Source: Escherichia phage ElsieAttenhofer_Bas105. From it: DNA of 39,718 bases. Both the position numbers and the translations under genes were made by a program. Where the stretch lies: sequence record PQ850601.1, one strand, 5' to 3'. How positions within the stretch are numbered: position 1 is the stretch's first letter; every line of letters starts with the position of its first letter. Of this stretch, positions 3,368 to 39,718 are shown piece by piece. The notes under the pieces are model-generated. The model was not told the DNA's origin, did no database searches, and saw nothing but the letters and a program-made list of their open reading frames with translations.

Positions 3368-3461
3368 CTGAATGAATAATTATAGGTGAAAGCTGCATGA
3401 ATACGCGGTTAGTAACCTATAGTTACTACCAGTCTAACCTACTGTTTTACAAGGAGTTTTG

Positions 3462-3484
3462 ACTTAACTATCACTATAGGGAAG
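3462..3484 (+). promoter_or_regulatory. Phage RNAP promoter (phiOR-like, near right genome end)
   Basis: TTAACTATCACTATAGGGAAG matches the 12-copy promoter consensus; predicted +1 G at 3479. Confidence 0.7.
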
Positions 3485-3664
3485 ACCCCCGGTTACTTAT
3501 AGTATTACTGTAGTGAATATACATATGCAGACTTTATGCAAGACCTTAGGAGGCAGACTCCGAGTTCTTACCTAAGGCTTGCACCGATGGAAGGAGGGTG
3601 ATATTAATCATAATCCCTCCAATACAGATAGTCACCGACCATAGATACAGGAGGTATGTAGCAT

Positions 3665-5879: not shown

Positions 5880-6271
5880 TGACTATGTCAAATCTGGTAC
5901 ACGCAATGGACTCAATCATATCTCTTCGCACATTCACTGATAAGAACGGCGTAGAGTGGAAGTACGTCGGCACGGACTCTCGCGGTCGCAACTACTGGGA
6001 GAAGACCGGGAACAAGACCGCTTATGTGCATCGACACTCTTCACACTCCGCACGTCAACAGCAGGAGCGGTACCGGGTACTGCAAGCAAGACTCCGGGCA
6101 GAGGGCCATAAGTCGGAGCTGATGTGTCTGGCGTATGGTGGACGACCAATCACCGACGATGGTAAACTTTTGGTCTCAGGCTGGAAGGCGATAGACCAAC
6201 GGTCAACCATCAAGCACACGACTCATGGTGACTTCAGTCATCTTCACGCTAATCCACTGATATGCAAGTGA
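5879..6271 (+). CDS. Early hypothetical protein (130 aa) at the position of T7 gene 0.7
   Basis: ORF immediately upstream of gene 1, TAATG overlap with the previous ORF; no kinase motifs; unknown function. Confidence 0.5.
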   Translation: MTMSNLVHAMDSIISLRTFTDKNGVEWKYVGTDSRGRNYWEKTGNKTAYVHRHSSHSARQQQERYRVLQARLRAEGHKSELMCLAYGGRPITDDGKLLVSGWKAIDQRSTIKHTTHGDFSHLHANPLICK

Positions 6272-6276
6272 TTCAG

Positions 6277-6299
6277 ACTTAACTATCACTATAGGACTC
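6277..6299 (+). promoter_or_regulatory. Phage RNAP promoter upstream of gene 1
   Basis: TTAACTATCACTATAGGACTC; predicted +1 at 6294. Confidence 0.65.
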
Positions 6300-6368
6300 A
6301 AGGTCTAAGACTCCAAGTGAAAGATCAAAGAGACTTTAAGTGAAAGACTAATAACAAGGACTTTAAGT

Positions 6369-9050
6369 ATGAGCGTCATCTCTATTGACAAACACGACTT
6401 CTCTGATGTGTCAAACGCCATTGAGCCGTTTAACCTGCTGGCCGACCACTACGGGCAAGACCTTGCAGTCAAACAGCTTCAGCTTGAGCATGAGGCATAC
6501 ACTGAAGGCGAGCGACGTTTCATCAAGAACCTTGAGCGCCAGACCGAGCGCGGGGAACTGGCAGACAATCAGGTCGCCAAGCCTTTGATGCAGACTCTGG
6601 TTCCTAAGATTGCGCAAGCCGTCAAGGAGTGGCACGAAGGTCCAGACGGGAAGCTGTCAACCTCTCGTCCTAGCGTAGCGTTCACCATGTTGAGTACTGA
6701 AGAGAAGGCCGTCAAGGATCGCTCTCTGCGTATCTCTTGCGAGTCTGCTGCGGTCATCATACTGAAGGTCATCCTCTCCAAGCTGGTCAAGCCTGAAGGG
6801 ATACCGATTACACCGATGGCCTCCGCGATAGGTCGCACACTTGAGGATGAAATCCGATTCGGTCGCATTCGTGACAAGGAGAAGGATCACTTCAAGAAGG
6901 CGATAGCAGATAACCTGAACAAGAGAGCCGGGGCATCATACAAGAAAGCCTACATGCAAGCGGTTGAGACCTCCATGTTGGAGCAAGGTCAACTGGAAGA
7001 TGCGTGGGGGACTTGGAGTCCGACCGAGGCTGTCCACGTTGGAATCAAGATGCTTGAGATTGTCATCCAGTCTACACAACTGGTCGAGCTTAAGCGTTAC
7101 GGTGCTGGCAATGCAGCGGCTGACGTTGAGATGGTCCACCTGTCAGACTTCTGGGTCAAGAAGATGGCACAACGCGGCTTCAGCCTTGCGGGTATCGCTC
7201 CAGTCTACCAACCTTGCGTCGTTCCGCCTAAGCCGTGGACTGGTGTCGTAGGCGGTGGGTACTGGGCCAAAGGTCGCAGACCACTCCCACTGATTCGCTT
7301 AGGGTCTAAGTCAGCGGTGGCACGTTACGAAGACGTGTACATGCCTGAAGTCTATGACGCTGTGAATATCATCCAGAATACGCCTTGGAAAGTTAACAAG
7401 AAGGTTCTGGAAGTGGTGAACATGGTCGAGAAGCTGAACAACACGCCTATTGATGACATACCTCAGATGGAACCGCTGAAGCCTGAGGACTATGCGGGTG
7501 AGACTGAAGAGGAACTCAAGGCATGGAAGAAGGCTGCTGCTGGTATCTACCGCCGAGAGAAGGCCAGGCAGTCACGTAGATTGTCACTGAGCTTTATCGT
7601 TAACCAAGCGAACAAGTTCTCTCAGTTCAAGGCCATCTGGTTCCCGTACAACATGGACTGGCGCGGTCGCGTCTACGCTGTGCCGATGTTCAACCCTCAG
7701 GGTAATGACATGCAAAAGGGTCTCCTGACTCTGGCAGTAGGTAAGCCTATTGGTGCTGATGGTTTCAAATGGCTGAAGGTCCACGGTGCAAACTGTGCGG
7801 GTATTGATAAAGTAACCTTCGAGGAGCGCATCAAGTGGGTGGAAGATAACCACGACAACATCATGGCTACCGCTAAGGCACCGATGGACAGCATTGAGTG
7901 GTGGGGCAAGTTAGACTCTCCGTTCTGCTTCCTAGCGTTCTGCTTCGAGTATGCTGGCGTAATGCATCACGGATTGTCTTACTCCTGCTCGCTGCCGATA
8001 GCATTCGATGGGTCCTGCTCTGGGATTCAGCACTTTAGCGCGATGCTTCGTGATCACATCGGTGGACATGCAGTAAACCTGACGCCTTCCGGTAAGGTAC
8101 AAGACATCTACCGCATCGTGTCTGACCGCATTGAGGAAGAGCTTAAAGTCCTGCTGGTTAACGGCACGGACAACGAGATGGTAACTCACGAGGACAAGAA
8201 AACTGGTGAGATTACCGAGCGTCTCAAACTGGGGACACGAGAACTGGCCCGTCAGTGGCTGACTTACGGTATGTCACGTAAGGTCACTAAGCGTTCAGTC
8301 ATGACTCTGGCCTACGGGTCGAAAGAGTACGGCTTCGCAGACCAAGTATACGAGGACATCGTGATGCCTGCGATTGACTCAGGGTCTGGCGCTATGTTCA
8401 CCGAACCAAGCCAAGCGTCCCGCTTCATGGCTAAGATGATTTGGGAAGCTGTGAGCGTGACCGTAGTTGCTGCGGTTGACGCGATGAAGTGGCTTCAAGG
8501 TGCTGCCAAGCTGCTGGCTGCTGAAGTGAAAGACAAGAAGACTGGAGAAATCCTGAAGCCTTGCCTTCCAGTACACTGGGTAACACCTGATGGGTTCCCG
8601 GTCTGGCAGGAATACCGCAAGAAGGATACCACTCGTCTGAACCTGATGTTCTTAGGGTCATTCAACCTTCAGCCTACCGTCAACAAAGGCACTAAGAAAG
8701 AGCTGGATAAGCACAAGCAGGAGTCAGGCATTAGCCCGAACTTCGTCCACTCACAAGATGGTAGCCACCTCCGCAAGACTGTAGTCCACACTCACCGCAA
8801 GTATGGCGTAATGTCATTCGCAGTGATTCACGATAGCTTCGGGACCATCCCGGCTGACGCTGAGTATCTGTTCCGTGGTGTCCGTGAGACGATGGTCGAG
8901 ACCTACCGCGACAACGATGTGCTGCTGGACTTCTACGAGCAGTTTGAATACCAGCTTCATGAGAGCCAGCGCGATAAGTTGCCAGAGCTTCCGAAGAAAG
9001 GTAAACTGAATATCGAAGACATCTTGTCTTCAGACTTTGCATTCGCTTAA
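6369..9050 (+). CDS. Single-subunit DNA-directed RNA polymerase (T7 gene 1 homolog)
   Basis: 893-aa ORF colinear with remembered T7 RNAP (FNPQGNDMxKGLLTLA, motif C VIHDSFGT, C-terminal SDFAFA); specificity-loop region reads GSFNLQPTVNKGTKKELDKHKQ. Confidence 0.97.
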   Translation: MSVISIDKHDFSDVSNAIEPFNLLADHYGQDLAVKQLQLEHEAYTEGERRFIKNLERQTERGELADNQVAKPLMQTLVPKIAQAVKEWHEGPDGKLSTSRPSVAFTMLSTEEKAVKDRSLRISCESAAVIILKVILSKLVKPEGIPITPMASAIGRTLEDEIRFGRIRDKEKDHFKKAIADNLNKRAGASYKKAYMQAVETSMLEQGQLEDAWGTWSPTEAVHVGIKMLEIVIQSTQLVELKRYGAGNAAADVEMVHLSDFWVKKMAQRGFSLAGIAPVYQPCVVPPKPWTGVVGGGYWAKGRRPLPLIRLGSKSAVARYEDVYMPEVYDAVNIIQNTPWKVNKKVLEVVNMVEKLNNTPIDDIPQMEPLKPEDYAGETEEELKAWKKAAAGIYRREKARQSRRLSLSFIVNQANKFSQFKAIWFPYNMDWRGRVYAVPMFNPQGNDMQKGLLTLAVGKPIGADGFKWLKVHGANCAGIDKVTFEERIKWVEDNHDNIMATAKAPMDSIEWWGKLDSPFCFLAFCFEYAGVMHHGLSYSCSLPIAFDGSCSGIQHFSAMLRDHIGGHAVNLTPSGKVQDIYRIVSDRIEEELKVLLVNGTDNEMVTHEDKKTGEITERLKLGTRELARQWLTYGMSRKVTKRSVMTLAYGSKEYGFADQVYEDIVMPAIDSGSGAMFTEPSQASRFMAKMIWEAVSVTVVAAVDAMKWLQGAAKLLAAEVKDKKTGEILKPCLPVHWVTPDGFPVWQEYRKKDTTRLNLMFLGSFNLQPTVNKGTKKELDKHKQESGISPNFVHSQDGSHLRKTVVHTHRKYGVMSFAVIHDSFGTIPADAEYLFRGVRETMVETYRDNDVLLDFYEQFEYQLHESQRDKLPELPKKGKLNIEDILSSDFAFA

Positions 9051-9062
9051 CAGGAGATAGTT

Positions 9063-9278
9063 ATGAAATTTGCACACAAGCAGACAGGCGTTAAGGGTGG
9101 GACTCAAATCGTGACCGTAACAGAACACAACGGCAAGGGTCTGGTGAAGACCACTATCATCCCAACTGAGATGTCCAAGCAGCTTAACATCCCGTTCAAG
9201 ACTCTTGTATATCTGGTCGAGTCCAGCCACGAGAAGTACCTGAAGGACGCAGTGTCCAAGCTGGAGCAGACAAAATGA
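9063..9278 (+). CDS. Hypothetical protein (71 aa)
   Basis: ORF with RBS AGGAGA upstream, directly after gene 1; no recognised motif. Confidence 0.45.
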   Translation: MKFAHKQTGVKGGTQIVTVTEHNGKGLVKTTIIPTEMSKQLNIPFKTLVYLVESSHEKYLKDAVSKLEQTK

Positions 9279-9356
9279 CAGACCTACAGTTACTGGCCCT
9301 GTGGCTTGGAGCACTCGCAATATTCACTTTAATCCAACGCAGAAGAGGTTAACCAT

Positions 9357-9827
9357 ATGTTCGGTAAGTCAAAACTTAAAGCACAAATCAAAGAGTTGAG
9401 CATGAAGGTGGCATACTTGGAGCGAGCCTTAACGGTACGGGATAAGGACAACGAGAGACTGAAGGTTAAACTTGCTGAATCAGAGCGTAAGCGCCTAACG
9501 CCTCCACCGGCTGTAACTGTCAAGCGTATGGTAGGCATCAAGTTCAAGGCACTGTTCAACGGTATGTACCAACCGACTGAGTTCAAGACCGGGCCGGGTA
9601 GCTGTGGGAAGAACGTTAAGCACTTCACCGTATCGAAGACTGAACGTACCATTACCATCCACCAGCACCACGTAGACGGGTCTCAGAAAGACTTTGAGTA
9701 CAGACTGAGCGCCATAGACGGACGCATCCAGTATGACTACGAGCGGGTTAAGGTCTACGGAGAAGAGGCCGAACGTGAGCGATATATTCAGGCATTCATG
9801 CGGGTAAGGCCGCGCATCATCTTCTAA
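9357..9827 (+). CDS. Hypothetical protein (156 aa) with N-terminal coiled-coil
   Basis: ORF between gene 1 and the phi1.1-like promoter; N-terminal heptad-rich charged segment; function unknown. Confidence 0.5.
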   Translation: MFGKSKLKAQIKELSMKVAYLERALTVRDKDNERLKVKLAESERKRLTPPPAVTVKRMVGIKFKALFNGMYQPTEFKTGPGSCGKNVKHFTVSKTERTITIHQHHVDGSQKDFEYRLSAIDGRIQYDYERVKVYGEEAERERYIQAFMRVRPRIIF

Positions 9828-9845
9828 ACTATCACTATAGGATTA
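9823..9845 (+). promoter_or_regulatory. Phage RNAP promoter (phi1.1-like)
   Basis: CTAAACTATCACTATAGGATT; predicted +1 at 9840. Confidence 0.7.
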
Positions 9846-9896
9846 GACTCAAGGTCATGACTCAAAGTCGTGGCCTTCATGATTAACCCTAACTCA
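9843..9896 (+). promoter_or_regulatory. RNase III-type processing stem-loop (R1.1-like), copy 2
   Basis: Stem AGGTCATGAC (9852-9861) / GTCGTGGCCT (9867-9876), loop TCAAA, two G-U pairs; conserved flanks as in copy 1. Confidence 0.5.
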
Positions 9897-9915
9897 TTCA
9901 ATCAGGAGCTACACC

Positions 9916-10095
9916 ATGTATCAGAACACTATCAACTTCGAGCGCATCAGTGAACGTCAGCAGACTGAAGGTTACATTCCTAAGGGCCGCAAGCTGAACA
10001 AGACCAAGCGTGGCGGTGGTGTCAAAGGCGCTTTCCGTAATGCTGAAGGTAAAGACTCTATGGTCAACCAAGAGAAATACTTCGTAGGAGTGTAA
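9916..10095 (+). CDS. Small basic protein (T7 gene 1.1 homolog)
   Basis: 59-aa ORF not in the supplied track; motif KGRKLNKTKR matches remembered T7 gp1.1; RBS AGGAGC upstream. Confidence 0.6.
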   Translation: MYQNTINFERISERQQTEGYIPKGRKLNKTKRGGGVKGAFRNAEGKDSMVNQEKYFVGV

Positions 10096-10098
10096 GTC

Positions 10099-10350
10099 AT
10101 GAGTAAACGATGGTTATTCGACGCATCCCCTAGCCAGTGGTCAGTGTTAGGCCGAACTCACCGCGAGATGAGTGAGGCAGGACTTGATGTCCTAATGGAT
10201 GACTCGCCGTGCTCCGGAAAAACTCTGGTCAGAGTAATTGAAGCAGACGGTGGGAGGCTTCTGGTCTCAAGAGAATTTACCGAAGATGAAATCTTTAGCT
10301 GTGAGCAATGGTGCTTACAACAATTGAACGCTTATAGGAGCTGGAAATAA
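10099..10350 (+). CDS. Gene 1.2-like protein (dGTPase inhibitor family, by position and C-terminal similarity)
   Basis: 83 aa versus 85 aa in T7; C-terminus EQWCLQQLNAYRSWK resembles remembered T7 gp1.2 TDWLNHMYDQLKDWK. Confidence 0.55.
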   Translation: MSKRWLFDASPSQWSVLGRTHREMSEAGLDVLMDDSPCSGKTLVRVIEADGGRLLVSREFTEDEIFSCEQWCLQQLNAYRSWK

Positions 10351-11465
10351 TGACAACTATTAAAACTAACCCGCACCGCGCTGTAGATTACTCTGAGTCT
10401 GGCATTAAGAAAGCACTGGCTGCTGCCGGGTCTCTCGAAGCTGAAGTGAAGTATGATGGTGTCCGGTTGAACCTCCCAGTCTTCCCGACAGGCGAGACCC
10501 AGTGGTTGAGCCGAGAGTCCAAGCCTCTTCCAGCCCTTGAATGGCTATCGGTCCTGACCAGCCTCGATAATATCGTGGAAGACCAGCAGCGCGCTAGCGA
10601 CTGGCGGTGGTTCCTGAAGCAAGCTGGCTATGAGGGGACTGGCCTGATGATTGATGGTGAGGTCATGGTGAAAGGGGTAGACTTCAACACGTCTTCGGGC
10701 CTCATTCGCACGAAGTATGTCAAGTCTAAAAACTGCGCCCTCCACGATGGTGATTGGGACCTCAAGTCCAAGACTACTCAGTTCCGGCTGGACCGAGACC
10801 GTATCAAGGTGGTAGTCTATGGCATCATCGACCTTAACGTCATCCTCGACCCGAAAGCCGAAGGTCCTATCCATAGCGTCACACGCCTGAAGGCCGAAGC
10901 TATCGTCCCTCTACTCCAGAAATACTTCCCGGAAATCGACTGGGTTCTGTCTGAGTCACACACGGTCTATGACCTTGAGTCGCTCAACTCCCTGTACGAA
11001 GAGAAGCGTCTGGAAGGACACGAGGGTCTGGTAGTCAAGGACCCACTTGGCAAATACAAGCGCGGAAAGAAGTCAGGCATGTGGAAAATGAAGCCTGAGG
11101 ATACCATTGATGGTATTGTGGTCGGACTGAATTGGGGGAATGAAGGTCTCGCAAACGAAGGTAAAGTGATTGGGTTCGACGTACTGCTTGAGAACGGTAT
11201 GGTAGTTGCTGCTAACAATATCTCTCAGGCTCTGATGGATGAGTTCACAGAAGCGGTTAAAGCTGAACGCGCCTATATTTGGAATGACTGCATGACTGAT
11301 ATTGAGCGGGAAGAATGTGGTGAGGAATGTCTTGAGGATGTGAACCCCTACAAAGGACATCAATGCGAAGTCTCCTACATGGAGATGACTCCGGATGGTT
11401 CCTTACGTCACCCTAGCTTCAAGTGCTGGCGCGGGACGGAAGATAACCCGACCATTAAGAGCTAA
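10350..11465 (+). CDS. ATP-dependent DNA ligase (T7 gene 1.3 homolog)
   Basis: 371 aa; adenylation motif KYDGVR; extended similarity to remembered T7 ligase (EGHEGLVVKDP, KRGKKSGMWKMKPE, DGSLRHPSF). Confidence 0.93.
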   Translation: MTTIKTNPHRAVDYSESGIKKALAAAGSLEAEVKYDGVRLNLPVFPTGETQWLSRESKPLPALEWLSVLTSLDNIVEDQQRASDWRWFLKQAGYEGTGLMIDGEVMVKGVDFNTSSGLIRTKYVKSKNCALHDGDWDLKSKTTQFRLDRDRIKVVVYGIIDLNVILDPKAEGPIHSVTRLKAEAIVPLLQKYFPEIDWVLSESHTVYDLESLNSLYEEKRLEGHEGLVVKDPLGKYKRGKKSGMWKMKPEDTIDGIVVGLNWGNEGLANEGKVIGFDVLLENGMVVAANNISQALMDEFTEAVKAERAYIWNDCMTDIEREECGEECLEDVNPYKGHQCEVSYMEMTPDGSLRHPSFKCWRGTEDNPTIKS

Positions 11466-21079: not shown

Positions 21080-21153
21080 TCTACTGGGCCGGACTTCTGG
21101 CCATTTACTGCATGTACAAGTGGTTCGGGTCGAACAACCGTCCTAAACACTGA
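21061..21153 (+). CDS. Small membrane peptide (30 aa), gene 6.3-like
   Basis: Own translation MDTIHVIYWAGLLAIYCMYKWFGSNNRPKH overlapping the gene 6 stop; single TM helix; position only. Confidence 0.3.
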   Translation: MDTIHVIYWAGLLAIYCMYKWFGSNNRPKH

Positions 21154-21205
21154 GTCTAACCGATAGTCATATCCTATCAATCCAACAGTCATCCATAGGT
21201 GAAAC

Positions 21206-21228
21206 ACTAAACTATCACTATAGGGACT
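21206..21228 (+). promoter_or_regulatory. Phage RNAP promoter (phi6.5-like)
   Basis: CACTAAACTATCACTATAGGGAC; +1 at 21223. Confidence 0.75.
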
Positions 21229-21289
21229 TTAGGACCTAAGATATGACTATAAGATAGACTTTAGTCTTAACTTAAAGAGGAGATTCAAG

Positions 21290-21562
21290 ATGGCGATTAA
21301 TGCTATTGAAAACGTTGTTAAGCAGTTACAGGAAGAAAGACTTGATGTCCCTAACATCTCCCAGTCTGCCATCCAATTCCTGCACGTACTGTTCAACGCA
21401 AGCTACGCTGAGAAGACGGGAGCTATAAGTCTCCTCAAGCAGCAAGGCTACAGCGATGCGTTCATTGCAGGGTTCATCAAGGGTCTCCAGTATTGTTCTG
21501 ACACTCTCGACTCTGCTATTGCTATGCGTCGTGAGCTTAAAGATACCGTTCAGTTCGATTAA
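21290..21562 (+). CDS. Gene 6.5-like hypothetical protein
   Basis: 90-aa ORF with GAGGAGA RBS, first gene after the phi6.5-like promoter; position and size match T7 gp6.5. Confidence 0.5.
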   Translation: MAINAIENVVKQLQEERLDVPNISQSAIQFLHVLFNASYAEKTGAISLLKQQGYSDAFIAGFIKGLQYCSDTLDSAIAMRRELKDTVQFD

Positions 21563-30698: not shown

Positions 30699-32981
30699 AT
30701 GGCTAGTAATATTGAATCAGCTCTGGCTAATCGGACTATGGGTCGTGGCAGAGCGCCGGGTAAAACTATCGCTGTCAACTATCAAGCAGCCAACGTACAG
30801 GCTCCTACTGGCGACTCTGGGCTGGCTCGTGCGCTAACTAACTTCGTTGAGTCTGGTACTGGATTGTACAAGCAGTTCAAGGACGAGGAGAAGACCAGAG
30901 CTGACGAGCGGTCTAACGAGATTATCCGTAAGATGACACCTCAGCAAAGACGTGAGGCTATCCAGAACGGCACACTGCTGTATCAGGACGACCCTTACGC
31001 TATGGAAGCACTTCGAGTCAAGACGGGCCGTAACGCTGCCTTTGCGGTGGATGACGAGATTAACGTTAAGATTCAGAACGGTGAGTTCCGTACACGTCAG
31101 GACATGGAAGAGTATCGCCACCAGCGACTTCAGGACGCCGCTAAGTCCTATGCTGAAGAGGCGGGAATTAACCCTACCGATGAGTTCTTCCAGCGCGGGT
31201 TCAACGATAACATCACAGACCGCAACATCGCTATCTATGGGTCTTTCAATAAGTATTTCAGCAAGCAGTCTGAAGAGACAGCAATGTTGAACACCCGTAT
31301 TGAGATGAACTCATTCCTGAACGATGGCGACCTGATGCGTTCACCTGAGTCTGGCAAGACCTTCATGGCCTACCTTCGTGATGGACTAACTACTGCTGCT
31401 ATCCCCTCGGACCAGCGAGCACGAGAGGTCATCACCCAGACGGTCCGTGACGCAATCCAGAAGTCAGGAGGCTCAAACTTCCTACAGCAAGTACGAGGCG
31501 AGCGAATCACCCTTAACGGTGTGGATGCTACAGTCGAAGAGATTGTAGGACCTGATGTCTTCAACGCTGCTATTGTTGAGGCACAAGGGACTGAGTACAA
31601 GCTGGTGGCTAAGTATCAGGAAGACTTAGCGTTAGGCGTTCAGTCTGCGATTCTTCAGGATGACCCAACCATTGGTCTTGCCCAGATTCAGAAACTCAAG
31701 GAGCAGAACAACCTACTTCAGCCGGGTGAAGAACTCACGCCTCAGCGTCAGATGCTTATTAACGCCGAAGCCAGCTTACTGGAAGCGGTCAAGCGTAAGT
31801 CTGCTGAACAGGCGAAGGAGAACACTAAGTTAATCCAGACCCAGAACAAGCAACTGGTCATCGACCAAGTGTATCAGCGACGTCTGGCTGGGGACAACGT
31901 GTCCACCAACTATGAGGACCTTCCGGTCTCAGATGCTACAGGCGAGTTCAAACGTTCGGACATGAACAACTATGCGGCTGCCAAGCTACAGCAGATTGAC
32001 CAGATGGACACCCCTGAGGCTGCTAAAGACGCTCAGAAGGTGGCATTGTTAAGAGCTGACACTAACAACGGTCCGTTCCGTAATGCCTTCCAGACGCTGA
32101 CTCAGGACGCTGCTGGTGAGTGGCAAGCTGCGGTCATCCGTGGACAGTACGACCCAGACAAGATGCAACGCTTCGAATCTCTTCGTCGTGCCTACACTCA
32201 GGACCCTTCAAGTTTTGCTGCGCTGTATCCGGACCAAGCTCAGTTGTTCTCTACGTTCGACCAGATGGACAAGATGGGTCTGGACCCTCAGACGATGATT
32301 GAAGCTGATAAGCAAGCTGCAAGTCAAAGCCGTGAGATGCGCATGGAGTCAGACAAGGCATGGCAGGAGTTGAAGAACGACTCCAAGAACACCCAGTTGT
32401 CTCGCCTCCCAACGTCTCTGGACTCAAGTGCTCGTAAGGTCTGGGACTCATGGTACTATCGTACAGGTAACGCTGACGCTGCAACGCAGCAGACTCAACG
32501 CTGGCTGAATGAGAACACCGTAACGTTCCGGTCTGAAGGTTCTGACGGTAAGTCAATAGGTATGGTGTCCAAGCACCAGCTTATGGTCGGGGATAACCCA
32601 GAGTCGTGGCAGGTGGGTCGAGACATTATCGACACCGCTCGTCAGCAGCTCATTAAGGCCAACCCTTGGGTAGTGAACTCTCAGTTGTCCGTTGTTGAAC
32701 AGAACGGCTCTATCTTCCTCCAAGACGCTACAGGGACTATTCGTATTCGATACGATAAAGAACTTGTAGGTAAACTCTACCGCGAACAACAGCAGAAGGC
32801 ACAAGATGCCGCATATGCTCAGGCAGAACGTGACGCTAACAAGCGAGCGCGTATCGTCGGGACTAAAACTGCTGGTGACAAACGTCGAGCTGACCGAGAG
32901 GCCAACATCGAGAAGCGTGGTGGGATGTACAATGACGTCTCACTGGAGGGTATCGCAAAAGTACTAATTGGTAAGGAGTAA
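30699..32981 (+). CDS. Internal virion protein C (T7 gene 15 homolog)
   Basis: 760 aa; ADERSNEIIRKMTPQQRREAIQNGTLLYQDDPYAMEALRVKTGRNAAFAVDD nearly identical to remembered T7 gp15. Confidence 0.93.
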   Translation: MASNIESALANRTMGRGRAPGKTIAVNYQAANVQAPTGDSGLARALTNFVESGTGLYKQFKDEEKTRADERSNEIIRKMTPQQRREAIQNGTLLYQDDPYAMEALRVKTGRNAAFAVDDEINVKIQNGEFRTRQDMEEYRHQRLQDAAKSYAEEAGINPTDEFFQRGFNDNITDRNIAIYGSFNKYFSKQSEETAMLNTRIEMNSFLNDGDLMRSPESGKTFMAYLRDGLTTAAIPSDQRAREVITQTVRDAIQKSGGSNFLQQVRGERITLNGVDATVEEIVGPDVFNAAIVEAQGTEYKLVAKYQEDLALGVQSAILQDDPTIGLAQIQKLKEQNNLLQPGEELTPQRQMLINAEASLLEAVKRKSAEQAKENTKLIQTQNKQLVIDQVYQRRLAGDNVSTNYEDLPVSDATGEFKRSDMNNYAAAKLQQIDQMDTPEAAKDAQKVALLRADTNNGPFRNAFQTLTQDAAGEWQAAVIRGQYDPDKMQRFESLRRAYTQDPSSFAALYPDQAQLFSTFDQMDKMGLDPQTMIEADKQAASQSREMRMESDKAWQELKNDSKNTQLSRLPTSLDSSARKVWDSWYYRTGNADAATQQTQRWLNENTVTFRSEGSDGKSIGMVSKHQLMVGDNPESWQVGRDIIDTARQQLIKANPWVVNSQLSVVEQNGSIFLQDATGTIRIRYDKELVGKLYREQQQKAQDAAYAQAERDANKRARIVGTKTAGDKRRADREANIEKRGGMYNDVSLEGIAKVLIGKE

Positions 32982-32985
32982 CATA

Positions 32986-35900
32986 ATGGCGACTCGTGGT
33001 ATTCGCAATAACAATCCGGGGAACATCCGGGTAAGTAAGGACCAATGGGAAGGAATGACTGGAGATGATGGCGCATTCGTCACCTTCGATAGTCCAGAGT
33101 CTGGCGTCCGAGCTTTAGGTAAAAACCTGCTGTCCTACGGTCGCCAAGGTTATGACTCCATCGAGAAGATTATCAACCGATGGGCCCCTCCTAACGAGAA
33201 CGACACTCAGGCTTATATTGACTCAGTGGTGGCTGCGACTGGTATCCCAGCTACCCAGAGTCTAGACCTCTCGAACCCGGACACACTGTCTTCTCTGGCG
33301 CAAGCTATCAGCTTCCATGAGACAGGCTCCCGGTACGACCCTGAAGTCTATCAGCAGGGAGTCGCAAGAGCACTCAACGGTATCAGCCCAAAGACTCCAC
33401 CAGTAAGCGCTAACGTATTTGACGCACTCACGGAAGGACTCAAGTCTAAACCTAAAGTAGCTCTGGGTGAGAAACTTCCGACCGCTGCTGGTCTGAACAT
33501 TGAGGGTCAAGCACCTGAAGCTCCCAACGAATCGTTCGGTGAGATGTTCTATAAGGCTACTGGAGAGACCATGCAGGAACGAGAGGACCGCTCTACGTGG
33601 TTCGGTTTCGGTGCGGCTACAGAAGCTGAAGTGAAGAACTCTATGGTCGGCGTGGCTATACGGGCTGGTCAGACTGAGGACTCACTGGATGTCATTGGCG
33701 ATGTGTTCAACCCAACCAGATGGAACAACCATAAGTGGACTCGTGAAGAGCTTGACCAGATTCGTAACGCTGGGGTTCTGCCTCAGTATTACGGAGTAAT
33801 TACTGGCGGTTCTCCTCAGAATCTGACAGAGCTGATAAACTTGGCGCTGGAGAACCAGAAGTTGGACCAAGAGAAGGCCAAGGCTGGGACTGGCGCTCAA
33901 CTGGCGGCTGGCGTGATTGGTGCTGGCGTGGACCCTCTGACCTACGTTCCTATTGCTGGGCAGGTAGGCAAAGGTGGGAAGCTAATCAACAAGATGTTCA
34001 CTGTGGCTGCTCAGTCTGGCGCTCTGGCTGGTGTGTCTGAGGTGGCCCGTACCTCAGTGGCTGGTGGTGATGCTCATGTGGCTGAAGCTATCCTTGGTGG
34101 TGCTCTCTTCGGTGGTGGCATGACCGCTATCGGGGACGTTATCGGCAAGGCCCTAGGCAAGTCAACCAATGAGTTCGCTGGGCCAGCAACACGTCTGGAA
34201 GCTCGTGAGACTGCACGTAATGTTGACGGTCAGGATCTGTCTCGTCTACCTATTCAGGAAGGTGAGCAGACCTTTAGTCATCAAGGTGTTAAGTTCGCAG
34301 ACGTTCCGAACGAGCCGGGTAGTGTACGACTGGAAGATGGTTCAATCCTGATTGGTGAGAACCCTCTGAACCCTAAGACACGTCAAGTCTTTGACGAAGT
34401 GATTGAGCCGGAACGTGCCGCTGCTGGTGTGAACCTTGGTGGACTTACCGAGATTGGTCTAAAGCTCCTGAGGTCTGAGAACCCTGAGATTCGAGGACTT
34501 GCAGCTGACTTGGTGCGCTCACCCACAGGTATGCAATCTGGTTCGAGCGGTAAGATTGGGACCACCTCGTCAGACGTATTCGAGCGACTTCGTGCAGTTG
34601 ACCATAGGTTCTACAACGACATTGACGATGCTGTGACTCAGGCACTGAAGGACCCATACTTCCAGACAAACTTCAACCGTGACAATAAGTCGTTCCGTCA
34701 GGACATCTACCAGCGCGTAGCTCTGGCGATTGAAGATGGAAGTGGGAACCTGAAGGCTGAGCTGACTCCGGGTGAGCTGAAGGTCTATGACCTGCTGAAG
34801 AACCAGTTCGACGCTAAGCGTGAGATGATGGAGAACCCTGCGATGTTCGGTCGAGCTGACGCTCAGTCTATCTTCCCCGGTAGCCGCTTCAAGGGAACCT
34901 ACGTTCCTCACGTTTACAGCAACCAGATGAAGCAACTGTTCATCAATGAGCTGGGAAGCCCTGAGGCTCTACAGGAGGCCATCAAGAAGTCGTGGCTAGC
35001 GAGCTATGCGTCACGACCTGAGGTTAAGGCGCGAGTGGATGCAATGTTAGCTGAGCAGCTTCAGGCTACACAGAAGGCAGCAGGTAAGACTTCAGGTCAA
35101 ACTACCAGTCAACGAGCTTCGGTTAGTGAGGCAAGTTACCAGATGAAACTGGATGATGCAGCTACTCGTGCGGCTGATAATGTTGCGGAACTGAACGATG
35201 TACTGACTAACGCTGAGAAGCGTGTGGCAGACCATGAGAAGAAGCTTCAAAACTCCAAGGATAGACTTGCGTCCCATGAGGCCAAACTTAAGGAGCTTGA
35301 GGAGCAACTGGAAGCTAAGCCTAATAGCAAGACCCTTCCTGTTAAGATTGAGAGCCGGAAGCGGATGATTGAGACACAGCAGTCTCATGTCCGTGTGAAT
35401 ACCGAGCGTCTCGACTACGCGAATGCCCAAGCTGCTAAGGTTCGAGACCGAATTGCCAAGGCTACTAGTGAGTACGAAGCAGTCGCAGCCGCAGCTAAAG
35501 GTACCAAACCAGTGGTTGATAACGATACAGCTCCAACTGGAGAGGCGACTTCCGGTGCAGAACCGAATGTAGCCCCTGAGGTAACGATGGCTATGGTTGA
35601 GAAGTACGCCAACGATAAAGCTTATGGTATATCACACTCTGACGTCTTTGAGCGCTCATCCGTAATGGAGGAAAACATCAATGGTCTCGTAGGCTTGGAG
35701 AACAATAACTTCCTTGAGGCTCGTAACCTGTTTGACAGCGATATGGAAATCGTGTTGCCTAACGGTCAGCCGTTCAGTGTTAACAGCCTCCGTGAGTGGG
35801 ATATGGACAAGATTATCCCAGCATATAACCGTCGAGTAAATGGTGATATTGCTATCATGGCTGGTACAGGTAAGACCACGAAGGAAGTGAAGGATGCCGT

Positions 35901-37374
35901 AGAGACCCTGATGAACCGCGCTGGTGATGACGGTAAGTTGAAGGATGAGGTGTCGACTCTGCGTGACACCCTTAAGATTCTGACTGGTCGCGCTCGACGT
36001 GATGGTGCTGACGATGCTGCGTTCGCTACCGTGATGCGTACCATGACTGACCTGTCCTTCTTCGCTAAGAATGCCTACATGGGTGTTCAGAACTTGACGG
36101 AGATTGGCGGTATGCTGGCCCGTGGTAACGTCCGTGCGATGTTGCATGGCATTCCAATATTCCATGACCTAGCCTTCCGTAACAAGAAGATGGGAGCCTC
36201 GGAGATTAAGGACCTGCACAATGTTATCTTCGGTAAGGAACTGGATGACTCAATCCGTCCGTCAAAACAGGATGTCATAGACCGCCTACGAGCTTACAGC
36301 GCCCTGAGCAAACCTACAGCTACGGCTTTAGGATCTGCCAAGTATTACACTGGTGAACTTGCAGTACGCTCTCCGTTCACTAAAGTCCTCAACGGTACGA
36401 CCAACTACCTGTTAGATGCTGGACGTCAAGGCTTCCTGTCTGACATCGTGGAGCATAGCCTGACTGGTAGTAAGCGTAAGTTCGATGACCGCTGGCTGAA
36501 GACCGCTGGTATCTCTGACGAGCAGTGGAAAGGCATTAAGTCCATAATCCGTGAGTCAGTGACTCGTGGTCCAGACGGGAAGTATACCATCAAGGATAAG
36601 AAGGCGTTCAGTCAGGACCCAAGGGCTATGGACCTGTGGCGTATGGGTGACACCATCGCTGACGAAACGTTACTCCGGCCTCATAAGCTGTCAAACATGG
36701 ACGCCAAGGCTTATGGCCCTCTCGCTAAGACTGTCCTTCAGTTTAAGAACTTCGTCATCAAGTCCATCAATGGGCGAACCATGCGAACCTTCTATAACGC
36801 CACGAAGAACAACCGAGCGATTGACGCTGCCCTGTCCACTGTGATGTCTATGGGTCTTGCTGGTATCTACTACATGGCTCAGGCGCACGTCAAGGCTTAC
36901 GCTATGCAGGATGGTCGAGACCGTGACTACCTCAAGCAAGCTCTGGACCCGACGATGATTGGATATGCTGCTCTATCACGTAGTTCACATCTTGGTGGAC
37001 CACTTGGGGTAGCTAACATTCTGGGTGGTATCGCTGGGTACGAGGACACTAAGATGCTCCGTTCGTCTATCCTCCCGCGTTCACCTACAGAGAAGCCTGA
37101 ACGGGCCATCGCGTATGGTGCAGCTACAAGTGACCCTGTGATGAATGTTGTTGGTAACTTCTTGGAGCAGGTTCCAGCTTTCGGATATGCTGCTAACGTT
37201 GGCGCTTCGGCTTACAACTTGGCTGGCTACCTCAAGGCTGATACTCGTGTCAACGAGCGTGACTACATGACCGGGATGTATAATACGTTCCGTGAACTGG
37301 TTCCGAACGACCCCATTACCCAGAAGCTGTTGCTTGGAACGTTTGAGGAGCAAGGCATCCACATCAAGGACTAA
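32986..37374 (+). CDS. Internal virion protein D (T7 gene 16 homolog) with non-canonical N-terminal domain and a coiled-coil insertion
   Basis: Start placed at ATG 32986 (AAGGAG RBS; the track ORF begins upstream at 32968 inside gene 15); central and C-terminal regions colinear with remembered T7 gp16 (SRPEVKARVD, VEKYANDKAYGISHSD, FLEARNLFDSD, YNRRVNGDIAIM, NGTTNYLLDA); N-terminal 140 aa lack the SLT motif; about 150 extra residues near nt 35090-35580. Confidence 0.92.
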   Translation: MATRGIRNNNPGNIRVSKDQWEGMTGDDGAFVTFDSPESGVRALGKNLLSYGRQGYDSIEKIINRWAPPNENDTQAYIDSVVAATGIPATQSLDLSNPDTLSSLAQAISFHETGSRYDPEVYQQGVARALNGISPKTPPVSANVFDALTEGLKSKPKVALGEKLPTAAGLNIEGQAPEAPNESFGEMFYKATGETMQEREDRSTWFGFGAATEAEVKNSMVGVAIRAGQTEDSLDVIGDVFNPTRWNNHKWTREELDQIRNAGVLPQYYGVITGGSPQNLTELINLALENQKLDQEKAKAGTGAQLAAGVIGAGVDPLTYVPIAGQVGKGGKLINKMFTVAAQSGALAGVSEVARTSVAGGDAHVAEAILGGALFGGGMTAIGDVIGKALGKSTNEFAGPATRLEARETARNVDGQDLSRLPIQEGEQTFSHQGVKFADVPNEPGSVRLEDGSILIGENPLNPKTRQVFDEVIEPERAAAGVNLGGLTEIGLKLLRSENPEIRGLAADLVRSPTGMQSGSSGKIGTTSSDVFERLRAVDHRFYNDIDDAVTQALKDPYFQTNFNRDNKSFRQDIYQRVALAIEDGSGNLKAELTPGELKVYDLLKNQFDAKREMMENPAMFGRADAQSIFPGSRFKGTYVPHVYSNQMKQLFINELGSPEALQEAIKKSWLASYASRPEVKARVDAMLAEQLQATQKAAGKTSGQTTSQRASVSEASYQMKLDDAATRAADNVAELNDVLTNAEKRVADHEKKLQNSKDRLASHEAKLKELEEQLEAKPNSKTLPVKIESRKRMIETQQSHVRVNTERLDYANAQAAKVRDRIAKATSEYEAVAAAAKGTKPVVDNDTAPTGEATSGAEPNVAPEVTMAMVEKYANDKAYGISHSDVFERSSVMEENINGLVGLENNNFLEARNLFDSDMEIVLPNGQPFSVNSLREWDMDKIIPAYNRRVNGDIAIMAGTGKTTKEVKDAVETLMNRAGDDGKLKDEVSTLRDTLKILTGRARRDGADDAAFATVMRTMTDLSFFAKNAYMGVQNLTEIGGMLARGNVRAMLHGIPIFHDLAFRNKKMGASEIKDLHNVIFGKELDDSIRPSKQDVIDRLRAYSALSKPTATALGSAKYYTGELAVRSPFTKVLNGTTNYLLDAGRQGFLSDIVEHSLTGSKRKFDDRWLKTAGISDEQWKGIKSIIRESVTRGPDGKYTIKDKKAFSQDPRAMDLWRMGDTIADETLLRPHKLSNMDAKAYGPLAKTVLQFKNFVIKSINGRTMRTFYNATKNNRAIDAALSTVMSMGLAGIYYMAQAHVKAYAMQDGRDRDYLKQALDPTMIGYAALSRSSHLGGPLGVANILGGIAGYEDTKMLRSSILPRSPTEKPERAIAYGAATSDPVMNVVGNFLEQVPAFGYAANVGASAYNLAGYLKADTRVNERDYMTGMYNTFRELVPNDPITQKLLLGTFEEQGIHIKD

Positions 37375-37392
37375 ACTATCACTATAGGAAAC
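37370..37392 (+). promoter_or_regulatory. Phage RNAP promoter (phi17-like)
   Basis: ACTAAACTATCACTATAGGAAAC; +1 at 37387. Confidence 0.75.
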
Positions 37393-37438
37393 TGGAGGCG
37401 CTACCATAGGTCTCCGTTTAAATCACAAAGGAGGCATA

Positions 37439-39625
37439 ATGTCCACGATTACACAATTCCCTTCAGGAAACACTCAGTACAGGATTGAGTTCGACTACCT
37501 AGCCAGAACGTTTGTTGTTGTTACGCTGGTGAATAGCTCTAACCCTACCCTGAACCGTGTAATGGAAGTTGGTCGAGATTACCGATTCCTTAATCCAACG
37601 ATGATTGAGATGTTGGTTGACCAATCAGGTTTCGACATCGTTCGTATTCACCGTCAGACTGGAACTGACTTAGTGGTAGACTTCAGGAATGGCTCAGTGT
37701 TGACAGCTAGTGACCTGACCAATGCAGAGCTTCAGGCTATCCATATTGCAGAAGAAGGTCGAGACCAAACTGTTGACTTAGCGAAGGAATATGCAGATGC
37801 TGCTGGTAGCTCTGCCGGCAACGCTAAGGATAGCGAGGACGAAGCAAGACGAATCGCTGCGAGTATCAAGGCAGCTGGTCTATTTGGATATATTACCCGT
37901 CGCTCCTTCGAGACAGGCTTCAACGTTACAGCATGGAACGAGGCCCTGCTATGGGAAGAGGATGGTGATTATTACCGCTGGGATGGTACGCTTCCAAAGA
38001 ACGTTCCTGCTGGTTCAACTCCTGAAACGTCTGGTGGCATTGGGTTAGGGGCGTGGGTCAGTGTTGGTGATGCTTCATTGAGAAGTGATTTGGCCCTAAC
38101 CACAGGCGCAGGTCGAGTTGGTACAACATCCGGCAGGACCGTACAGGCAGAGTTTGATATCCTCAAAATGGGATACAAGACGCCTGATGACTTTGGCGCA
38201 AAAGGAGATGGAAGCACAGACGACACCAATGCCATATTAGATGCCTGTTCGTGGGCCTCAACCAACGGACTGCCACTTAGAATTCCATGCAAAACATATG
38301 TTTGGAATGGCGACACTATACCATACGATAATGTGGCCATTATTGGCGATAAGCGGCCCTATGCAGATTCATGGCTAACACGTCTTCTTGATGGCAGCAT
38401 TATCGTCGGTACGCTCAGATTTAGTGGCAAAAACGTACAAATCAGCAATATTGGAGTCGATCACGGTTCGTTCCGGTTCCCATCTATAGCTGGTGATGCT
38501 CTCACCGTCTCAGCTCCTGAAAAATCAGGGCAGTATTGCGTTATAAGAAACTGCATTGGGCTGGGACGAAATCCAACCGATGCATTTCACTCTATTCTGG
38601 TGGAGGGTTATAAATATTCAATTATTGAAGATTGCATAGGCATACAGAATACATATAGCCTCGCGCACAAAAGTGGTTATTCAATCACGAATAATATAAT
38701 ATCCAGAAACTCAAACACAGGTGTTATTGTTAAATCTGATAGTGCATTTGGTGATGCCAGTTTCTCTAATATTACCAATATTACCATTGATGGAAATGAA
38801 AACTGCAATATTGGCTTGTGGGTTTTTGCGCAAGACGCTCAACTACAGAAGGTTAATGTATCGAATATTGTAACGTCTGGATGTAAATACGACATGGTGG
38901 TGCAGTCTGATACTGGCGTCATCAATGAAATTAACATTAACAATCTGGCAAGCTCTGGAGCGTCCATAGCGTCACTAGCACTGGTGGCTAATGCAGCCGA
39001 TAAAATATACACCGTAAACATATCAAATGTTTCAGCTGGCGAAGTTACTGGGCAAATTATTGATGCACAGGCGGCTAATTTGCTAAACATATCTAATGTG
39101 AACGGGCGAATTACTAGTGAATCTACCCACGTTAATGACTCTATAAAGATAGGACCATTAGTCAATGTTTCAAATCTTGTTAATATCACACCAACTTTGA
39201 ACTATGACCTTGTCTCTCAGGCTGGAGTGACTTTTAACAACGCTTTTGACAAGAACAGCATCAGTAATGTTCGCGCTGCGATATATGGAAGCGGCGCGCC
39301 GCGACCCGGGTATGCAACACAGGATGCAAGCGGTGATTCTGGAGTGCTTTCGGTAAGATACAGCCAGACAAACTCGTCATTCCTAAAGCTAACGCTTCCG
39401 TCAGGAGCAGCTGAGATAGCTACCATAAACACAACAGCCATCAATGGTTCGGTAATACCTGAAGGGTATGTTTTATGGATACAAAACGCCACCGCCGGGC
39501 AAAACCTAACGATAACGCCTTCTACTGCTGGTCATATCGTTACAACCGGGAATACTGCAAAGGTGTTAGCTGGCGGTGATAAGGTTGGGTTTATGTTTGA
39601 TGGGAGCACCTGGATTCAGATGTGA
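37439..39625 (+). CDS. Tail fiber / tailspike: T7 gp17-like N-terminal adaptor fused to a pectate-lyase-fold (beta-helix) depolymerase-like domain
   Basis: 728 aa; N-terminal 150 aa align with remembered T7 gp17 (YLARTFVVVTLV, DYRF, VDFRNGSVLTASDLTNAELQAIHIAEEGRD); central region carries the hallmark DFGAKGDGSTDDTNAI and repetitive N/S/T/V-rich beta-helix rungs. Confidence 0.9.
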   Translation: MSTITQFPSGNTQYRIEFDYLARTFVVVTLVNSSNPTLNRVMEVGRDYRFLNPTMIEMLVDQSGFDIVRIHRQTGTDLVVDFRNGSVLTASDLTNAELQAIHIAEEGRDQTVDLAKEYADAAGSSAGNAKDSEDEARRIAASIKAAGLFGYITRRSFETGFNVTAWNEALLWEEDGDYYRWDGTLPKNVPAGSTPETSGGIGLGAWVSVGDASLRSDLALTTGAGRVGTTSGRTVQAEFDILKMGYKTPDDFGAKGDGSTDDTNAILDACSWASTNGLPLRIPCKTYVWNGDTIPYDNVAIIGDKRPYADSWLTRLLDGSIIVGTLRFSGKNVQISNIGVDHGSFRFPSIAGDALTVSAPEKSGQYCVIRNCIGLGRNPTDAFHSILVEGYKYSIIEDCIGIQNTYSLAHKSGYSITNNIISRNSNTGVIVKSDSAFGDASFSNITNITIDGNENCNIGLWVFAQDAQLQKVNVSNIVTSGCKYDMVVQSDTGVINEININNLASSGASIASLALVANAADKIYTVNISNVSAGEVTGQIIDAQAANLLNISNVNGRITSESTHVNDSIKIGPLVNVSNLVNITPTLNYDLVSQAGVTFNNAFDKNSISNVRAAIYGSGAPRPGYATQDASGDSGVLSVRYSQTNSSFLKLTLPSGAAEIATINTTAINGSVIPEGYVLWIQNATAGQNLTITPSTAGHIVTTGNTAKVLAGGDKVGFMFDGSTWIQM

Positions 39626-39718
39626 TCGCAGTTTGTGGAGGTAGAGGCTAACTACACGCTGACCAACGTATGGTAACAACTTTGGGTCACGGACGACCCG
39701 CTTTAAACTGGAGGTTTT

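Follow-up and report, generated by a model that had tools for sequence, protein, structure and literature searches.

Here, we describe an analysis of the tailspike gene 17 (Gp54, ElsieAttenhofer/Bas105) of Escherichia phage ElsieAttenhofer_Bas105 (hereafter Bas105), whose genome (PQ850601.1) was analysed as one stretch of DNA of 39,718 nucleotides (nt), here called the window. The gene is an open reading frame (ORF) on the plus strand, from 37439 to 39625, with an ATG start codon and 728 amino acids (aa). It is highly probable that its product is the sole receptor-binding protein of the phage, made of an anchor (aa 1-212) and an exchangeable beta-helix cassette for the O16 O-antigen, which it is likely to hydrolyse. 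It must be noted that an earlier publication on this phage already covers the gene, together with its receptor and modular origin. What is added here are the crossovers at nucleotide level, the decomposition of an internal trough in guanine plus cytosine (GC) content and a candidate active site; such breakpoints, GC trough and candidate catalytic residues are not given in the parts of the published description (PMC11990801) that were read.

The Kayfunavirus ElsieAttenhofer (Bas105) was reported to depend on the O16 O-antigen (PMC11990801, PLoS Biol 2025), and the supplementary table of that source lists Bas105 as PQ850601, with 39,718 base pairs, a GC content of 0.502, Rhine water as its origin and 'O16-type O-antigen' as its receptor. 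The row of its tailspike in the published alignment starts with MSTITQFPS...RVMEVGRDYRFL (NRVMEVGRDYRFL), matching the ORF studied here. The same source describes this tailspike as pectin-lyase-like, reports the horizontal exchange of the module, and gives homology to the tailspikes of O16-dependent siphoviruses, of the Gamaleyavirus Bas96 and of the Lederbergvirus Bas106 (PMC11990801). In our comparisons the homology to the O16-targeting BASEL tailspike clade (PMC11990801 Fig 11A) extended over the full length. The relatives that the phage collection contains all stem from this one study, and the close and intermediate ones among them, namely those of Bas82, Bas106, Huey/Dewey/Louie, Bas70-73 and Bas77-80, all belong to phages described as O16-dependent (PMC11990801, PMC12243541). 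From the published phenotype, the receptor is the O16 O-antigen and not a capsule. The first-pass annotation of this DNA, made from the sequence, had proposed either of them, and only the O-antigen half of that proposal stands.

Gene 17 is a true mosaic. Its first 650 nt are approximately 96-98% identical in about 170 Kayfunavirus (K1F-like) genomes by megablast, while nt 532-2187 gave a megablast match in one record only, the gene annotated as 'tail fiber' Bas82_0055 of KarinMuster_Bas82. As delimited by identity to Bas82_0055, the exchanged receptor-binding cassette extends from 38075 to 39635 on the plus strand and comprises aa 213-728 together with the stop codon and some 10 further nt. 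Over 1548 nt, the two cassettes share 96.1% nt and 96.1% aa identity, with a synonymous divergence (dS) of 0.104 and a ratio of nonsynonymous to synonymous divergence (dN/dS) of 0.20. The latter indicates purifying selection, which counts in favour of the reading of the gene given above.

Both edges of the cassette could be placed by alignment. The left crossover zone (38045..38075, plus strand) is a conserved patch of about 30 nt encoding LGAWVSVGDA: the window follows the Kayfunavirus pO91 (97.7%) to 38080 and Bas82 from about 38075, and the patch is near-identical in all three. A 66-nt query covering it matched 406 phage records, ranging from 40-kilobase (kb) podoviruses to the 157-kb Kuttervirus, and wherever the sampled records annotate the feature, the gene that holds it is one for a tail spike or tail fibre. 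The patch fits the published, conserved 'motif one' in this location, for which a role as a hotspot of recombination has been put forward (PMC10408124). The right crossover (39626..39640, plus strand) lies just 3' of the stop codon and is an 8-of-9-nt microhomology, AGTTTGTGG / AGGTTGTGG; there, Bas82 homology runs to 39638, 13 nt beyond the stop, and Kayfunavirus homology resumes at 39618-39626. The same cassette edges were found against an environmental 44-kb siphovirus contig, L009 (38063-39637, 91.6%), and against a draft-genome contig, L008 (to 39632, 85.3%).

The best explanation of these alignments is that the cassette joined this backbone, or left it, through recombination. Bas82 was considered as a proven donor and rejected, given the dS of about 0.10 and the third backbone (L009) with the same cassette edges. 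In the distant mode of our search, the cassette DNA had no match among 5,426 complete E. coli genomes and no prophage donor was found; bacterial copies were limited to a 53%-identical protein of a P22-like prophage and to one copy, with 87% identity, from a draft assembly. The anchor has a dS of 0.099 from K1F and of 0.062 from pO91, similar to that between the cassette and Bas82. The first-pass annotation had proposed a recently acquired cassette; an exchange is supported by the homology, and 'recent' holds only on the scale of the diversification of the genus, since the dS of the cassette is about that of the anchor from K1F.

With respect to the anchor, the first 116 residues (37439..37786, plus strand) form a T7 gp17-like tail-attachment domain, as indicated by PF03906 (T7 tail fibre N-terminal domain; aa 10-115, 58.5 bits against a Pfam cut-off of 25.2) and by the T7 gp17 chains 7boz, 8dsp and 8e4g (aa 6-116). 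In the solved T7 gp17 (7boz), aa 6-116 align with T7 residues 12-122 at an expectation (E) value of 5.7e-16, and nothing further on is matched. The rest of the protein had been called unrelated to the T7 fibre shaft, in agreement with this result; the T7 match itself had been set at 150 aa, which is right as to its presence and too long as to its extent of about 116 aa, and too short for the conserved adaptor of 212 aa. The following Ala/Ser/Asp-rich linker (aa 117-150; 37787..37888, plus strand) was recognised from its sequence and is conserved with the solved chain 9vvr; Pfam gave no domain in it except a spurious LEA_4 match below the cut-off. The last part of the genus-conserved anchor is a Tail_spike_N domain of the CBA120 TSP1/Gp66 type (aa 151-212; 37889..38074, plus strand), at whose 3' end the left crossover lies; it is matched by PF18668 at aa 155-211 (71.1 bits against a Pfam cut-off of 25) and by the solved chains 4oj5, 5w6h, 6nw9 and 9occ. 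As delimited by these matches, the Kayfunavirus-conserved anchor is a unit of 212 aa made of the T7-type domain, the linker and Tail_spike_N. A literature search on the PDB entries 9VVR and 9LNA, which are solved anchors of the Kayfunavirus type, returned only unrelated papers.

The cassette itself is predicted to contain a right-handed parallel beta-helix (approximately aa 246-589; 38174..39205, plus strand) starting with the cap motif DFGAKGDGSTDDTNAI, and a C-terminal beta-sandwich (approximately aa 590-728; 39206..39622, plus strand). The cap motif was found at aa 251-266 (nt 38189-38236), at the start of a PF12708 (pectate-lyase-like) match that covers aa 250-457 above the curated Pfam cut-off, and the sandwich is matched by PF25692 (Phage_depo_C) at aa 637-725, with 28.2 bits against a cut-off of 25; this last family is present in 41/54 members of the cassette family. 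AlphaFold2 modelling of aa 213-728 with a 54-sequence alignment gave a mean predicted local distance difference test (pLDDT) score of 92.7 and a predicted template modelling (TM) score of 0.85. The model shows a short neck, then a right-handed beta-helix with its cap and, at the C-terminus, a beta-sandwich with pLDDT 86-97; an earlier run with 8 sequences had left the C-terminal 150 residues below a pLDDT of 50, which the larger alignment cured. By this model, the central domain is a pectin-lyase-fold beta-helix. The first-pass annotation had already pointed to the DFGAKGDGSTDDTNAI signature as typical of pectate-lyase-fold tailspikes and to rung-like repeats, and both are borne out by the motif, the PF12708 match and the confidently predicted helix; in addition, neither profile nor structure searches assigned the C-terminal region to a non-enzymatic fibre fold. 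The structure models made here are monomers. An AlphaFold-Multimer trimer of 'Gp54' with an interface predicted TM score of 0.79 is given in the supplement of PMC11990801, and the spike probably assembles as a trimer.

A candidate active site was obtained from the conservation among 54 homologues with 25-97% identity. It is a ladder of residues, D341, D353, H384, E389, K411 and K432-S433-D434, encoded between 38459 and 38740 on the plus strand. K411 is present in 54/54 homologues, H384 in 53/54, D341 and E389 each in 52/54, K432 in 50/54 (with Arg in the other 4), D434 in 49/54 and D353 in 45/54, and S433 is also near-invariant; these are the only near-invariant polar residues of the family. 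They are spaced by about 22-24 aa or by double this distance, which fits the same position on successive rungs, so that they would line one groove, as expected of a catalytic cleft. That the ladder is kept at 25-35% identity argues for a putative catalytic site rather than a specificity site. Depolymerase activity is proposed here as an inference, and so are the bond that it would cleave and the residues that would catalyse the cut.

The mechanism that we propose would begin with docking to the tail through the T7 gp17-like domain of the anchor. The O16 chains would then be bound along the groove of the beta-helix and cut hydrolytically by endoglycosidase action, in which the acidic residues D341, E389 and D434 would do the chemistry and H384, K411 and K432 would assist. 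By this cleavage, the virion would be able to advance to the outer membrane, and DNA ejection would be triggered. The O16 repeat reportedly consists of galactofuranose (Galf), glucose (Glc), 2-O-acetylated rhamnose (Rha2OAc) and N-acetylglucosamine (GlcNAc) with a glucose branch, and is said to be without uronic acid; therefore, beta-elimination by a lyase would be unavailable and hydrolysis is favoured. The gene's own phage promoter and strong ribosome-binding site, described below, also count in favour of the overall reading.

The conservation of the ladder also bears on whether the spike cleaves its receptor at all. A lectin-like beta-helix could bind O16 without cutting it, the membrane being reached by reversible binding and diffusion; we consider this improbable. 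Near-invariant Asp, Glu, His and Lys residues at 25-35% identity, presumably across different glycans, are a pattern typical of catalytic residues, and the characterised beta-helix tailspikes of podoviruses (P22, Sf6, HK620, Det7, CBA120) are, nearly without exception, known as enzymes.

Several observations weigh against hydrolysis of O16 by an exchanged cassette. The words halo and depolymerase had 0 matches in the available text of the BASEL paper (PMC11990801), and this text held no activity assay. A profile of the 54 homologues searched against the PDB met no characterised glycoside hydrolase beyond the N-terminal cap DFGAxGDGxTDD, bar one weak match deeper in the protein, where the KSD rung aligned with rhamnogalacturonase A (E=7e-4). 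Among the best structural neighbours, with only 10-18% identity, are epimerases, lyases and hydrolases as well as one adhesin (PfbA), and given these mixed chemistries the fold does not fix the chemistry. The placing of the ladder in one groove has the periodicity of the sequence as its sole basis. Moreover, Bas82, 4% diverged, need not have been the partner in the transfer.

Regarding these comparisons, the closest solved structure had a TM score no higher than 0.48. A profile relation over the catalytic rungs was not found for the glycoside hydrolase (GH) families GH28, GH55, GH87 and GH82, nor for the P22-type GH90. The transfer of catalytic residues from a characterised enzyme was tried and abandoned, given that the profile search against the PDB returned almost only the cap motif.

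Two other activities were considered beside hydrolysis of O16. The first is that the spike depolymerises a capsule or colanic acid, as could be read from phrog_8280, 'tail spike protein with colanic acid degradation activity', which matches aa 243-687 at E=1.4e-29, from the annotation of the Bas106 homologue as 'colanic acid degradation', and from the Phi92 gp150 colanidase, a weak neighbour in both sequence and structure. However, the gp150 match is limited to aa 217-286, that is, to the cap motif. Restoration of wbbL leaves the colanic-acid genes of the strain unchanged, and therefore colanic acid cannot explain the dependence on O16. Bas105 and every phage with a related module come from isolations on E. 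coli K-12 and reportedly need its restored O16 O-antigen (PMC11990801, PMC12243541). The PHROG name is a transferred label contradicted by this published phenotype, and we regard a capsule or colanic-acid depolymerase as very improbable.

The second is that the spike modifies the O-antigen, for instance by O-deacetylating the rhamnose of O16, as some tailspikes do on other glycans. O16 is O-acetylated, and a gene with an Acyl_transf_3 domain beside the 87%-identical tailspike of contig L008 hints that acetylation matters for the module. Nevertheless, the Pfam search matched no esterase family, and the tailspike deacetylases known to us have SGNH or alpha/beta-hydrolase folds, not a beta-helix; the conserved set does include S433 and H384, near Asp residues in the sequence. 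A deacetylase thus seems about as doubtful as a colanic-acid depolymerase, and hydrolysis of O16 along the beta-helix is preferred.

The GC content along the gene is not flat, as a sliding-window profile showed. Against 0.502 for the window, the stretch from 38500 to 39250 (plus strand), which encodes the Asn/Ile/Ser-rich distal half of the beta-helix, has a GC content of 0.391 and falls to its minima at 38611-38810 (0.315) and 39001-39200 (0.355). Values of 0.46-0.50 were found at 38100-38500 and of 0.491 at 39251-39625, the latter in line with the return of the last 125 codons to backbone composition stated in the first-pass annotation. This trough is the lowest of the genome at windows of 200, 300, 750 and 1100 nt, approximately 4.7-4.9 standard deviations under the mean. 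The AT-rich stretch had been placed at 38150-39250, whose GC content of 0.414 is that of the lowest 1100-nt window in the genome (the next lowest being 0.447); the trough and its right edge were correctly seen, and the left edge lies about 350 nt too early. As for other regions of the genome, the next-lowest GC islands are at 21141-21340 (0.355), 3371-3570 (0.375) and 6221-6420 (0.39); the island at about 3371 lies just 3' of the large terminase gene and that at about 6221 just 5' of the RNA polymerase gene.

The AT-rich stretch had also been taken as the signature of the acquired cassette, and this reading did not hold. Between the left junction and the start of the trough lie about 425 nt, and between its end and the right junction about 385 nt. 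Moreover, this internal trough recurs in the homologue of Bas82 (0.33-0.41, with a backbone of 0.43) and in that of Bas106, which is 54% identical (0.37-0.43, with a backbone of 0.475), and in weaker form in the 34%-identical genes of Bas77 and Bas70. The trough as the footprint of the cassette was thus rejected, since its edges do not coincide with the junctions and it travels with the module. It must be stressed that the swap is shown by the homology and not by the trough.

In order to decompose the trough, aa 355-605 were recoded with the codon usage of the backbone. The expected GC content was 0.463 and that observed 0.392, with a mean of 0.516 for backbone coding sequences. Of this deficit, 43% is due to amino-acid composition (Asn, Ile and Ser make up 35.5% of residues against 15.4%) and 57% to AT-biased synonymous codons. 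The trough is therefore a property of the distal beta-helix rungs in this module lineage, and it is consistent with long residence in genomes of lower GC content. A bias to AT in synonymous codons with respect to the backbone was also observed along the whole of gene 17, including the conserved anchor at 37439-38074 (-0.041 GC).

An exhaustive HMMER search of 1.84 billion cluster representatives revealed 289 relatives of the cassette at E<=1e-3, 44 of them at E<=1e-30, and most relatives span both the beta-helix and the C-terminal domain. Identity over 97-100% of the module is 96% for Bas82, 54% for Bas106 and Huey/Dewey/Louie, and 33-34% for Bas70-73 and Bas77-80. The anchors to which the module is joined are varied, with Tail_spike_N, P22-type Head_binding, tail-collar and T7-type domains found by Pfam among 54 relatives. 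By genomic context, the module occurs in at least five backbones: Kayfunavirus, Nonanavirus, the 44-kb siphovirus contig, a siphovirus-type tail locus, and P22-like phages and prophages. We tentatively suggest, as a possibility rather than an expectation, that the cassette represents an unclassified glycoside-hydrolase family with the D341/E389/D434 ladder together with H384, K411 and K432, and that its O16 members would cut a Galf- or Rha-containing linkage not known as a target of any characterised tailspike.

Some genes in the surroundings of these relatives deserve mention. In the siphovirus-type tail locus of L008 (GCA_025157155.1, JAJRFJ010000061.1), the Acyl_transf_3 gene lies at 8138-9265, directly 3' of the 87%-identical module and on the opposite strand, and possibly encodes, as a partner of the spike, an O-antigen acetylase for seroconversion. 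On the 44-kb siphovirus contig L009, which carries the 92%-identical module, a SNF2-type helicase gene at 8268-10733 has Hom_end_hint and faint LAGLIDADG_3 Pfam matches, which suggests that it holds an intein. An IS605 OrfB/TnpB-type gene is found in an E. coli chromosome (L010, 9704-10834) about 1.7 kb 3' of the P22-like prophage tailspike with the 53%-identical module.

In the Bas105 genome, gene 17 follows the homologue of gene 16 (internal virion protein D, 1468 aa), which ends at 37374, and precedes the holin gene 17.5, the gene order of the Autographiviridae layout. A putative promoter for the phage RNA polymerase, AACTATCACTATAGGAAAC (37374..37392, plus strand), was found by pattern match directly 5' of gene 17, between the stop codon of gene 16 (37374) and the ATG; its function is suggested by the T7-type CACTATAGG core. 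The pattern has 9 matches in the window, all on the plus strand, against 0 expected in shuffled sequences, and these nine promoter-like sites with the core AACTATCACTATAGG lie at 3466, 6281, 9827, 12401, 21210, 24028, 25034, 29597 and 37374. The ribosome-binding site AAGGAGG, read from the sequence at 37428..37434 (plus strand), is 4 nt 5' of the ATG. Matches to sigma-70 promoters around gene 17 were no more than expected by chance, and a terminator scan found none in or 3' of the gene. Short antisense and out-of-frame ORFs inside gene 17 were rejected as mechanical, being unsupported in a region under purifying selection in frame +1.

The DNA 3' of gene 17 aligns with pO91 and K1F in their holin/terminase region. 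Relative to the usual T7-like order the window is circularly permuted, as concerns its two ends (1-700 and 39626-39718): position 1 falls where the holin gene 17.5 starts, and gene 17 stands at the end of the record only because of the point where the genome was opened. The holin gene is followed by those for the small terminase, an Rz-like protein and the large terminase. Upstream, the ORF call of gene 16 (32968-37374) has a TTG start and a 14-nt overlap with the preceding gene; an ATG seven codons in (MATRGIRNNNPGN...) looks the more plausible start.

Gene 17 of Bas105 is a clean case of tailspike modules moving among unrelated phages, since the same O16 cassette is found on a T7-like podovirus, a 9NA-like siphovirus and other siphovirus contigs and, more distantly, in P22-like prophages. 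Its left crossover falls in a DNA patch that hundreds of otherwise unrelated tailspike genes have in common. The mapped edges of the cassette (about 38075 and 39635) are directly usable for host-range engineering in a Kayfunavirus chassis. The results also call for caution in scans made from sequence only: a GC trough within a beta-helix gene is largely due to rungs rich in Asn, Ile and Ser and to a bias that came along with the module, and does not mark recombination boundaries.

In comparison with known systems, the O-antigen endoglycosidase tailspikes of P22, Sf6, HK620, Det7 and 9NA have 11-16% identity to the Bas105 spike and no family relation at sequence level beyond the cap motif; their catalytic residues are not alignable with it, and their glycan specificity is other. 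T7 gp17 shares the homologous N-terminal tail-attachment domain and continues in a coiled-coil shaft with a small tip and no enzyme, whereas the Bas105 protein continues in Tail_spike_N, the beta-helix and the beta-sandwich. K1F gp17, pO91 and the chain 9vvr have the same 212-aa anchor (96-98% nt identity) in the same place, between gene 16 and the holin gene 17.5; nevertheless, K1F gp17 carries a beta-propeller endosialidase for the K1 capsule and Bas105 a beta-helix for the O16 O-antigen. Conversely, Bas82_0055 (a protein of 647 aa) of the Nonanavirus KarinMuster, a 58.5-kb siphovirus with an unrelated backbone of GC content 0.43, has a different and shorter anchor, suited to the tail tip of a siphovirus, and shares with Bas105 residues 213-728 at 96% identity, together with the same internal GC trough. 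Bas82, like Bas105, is described as O16-dependent (PMC11990801), and the two phages were both obtained from Rhine water in Switzerland.

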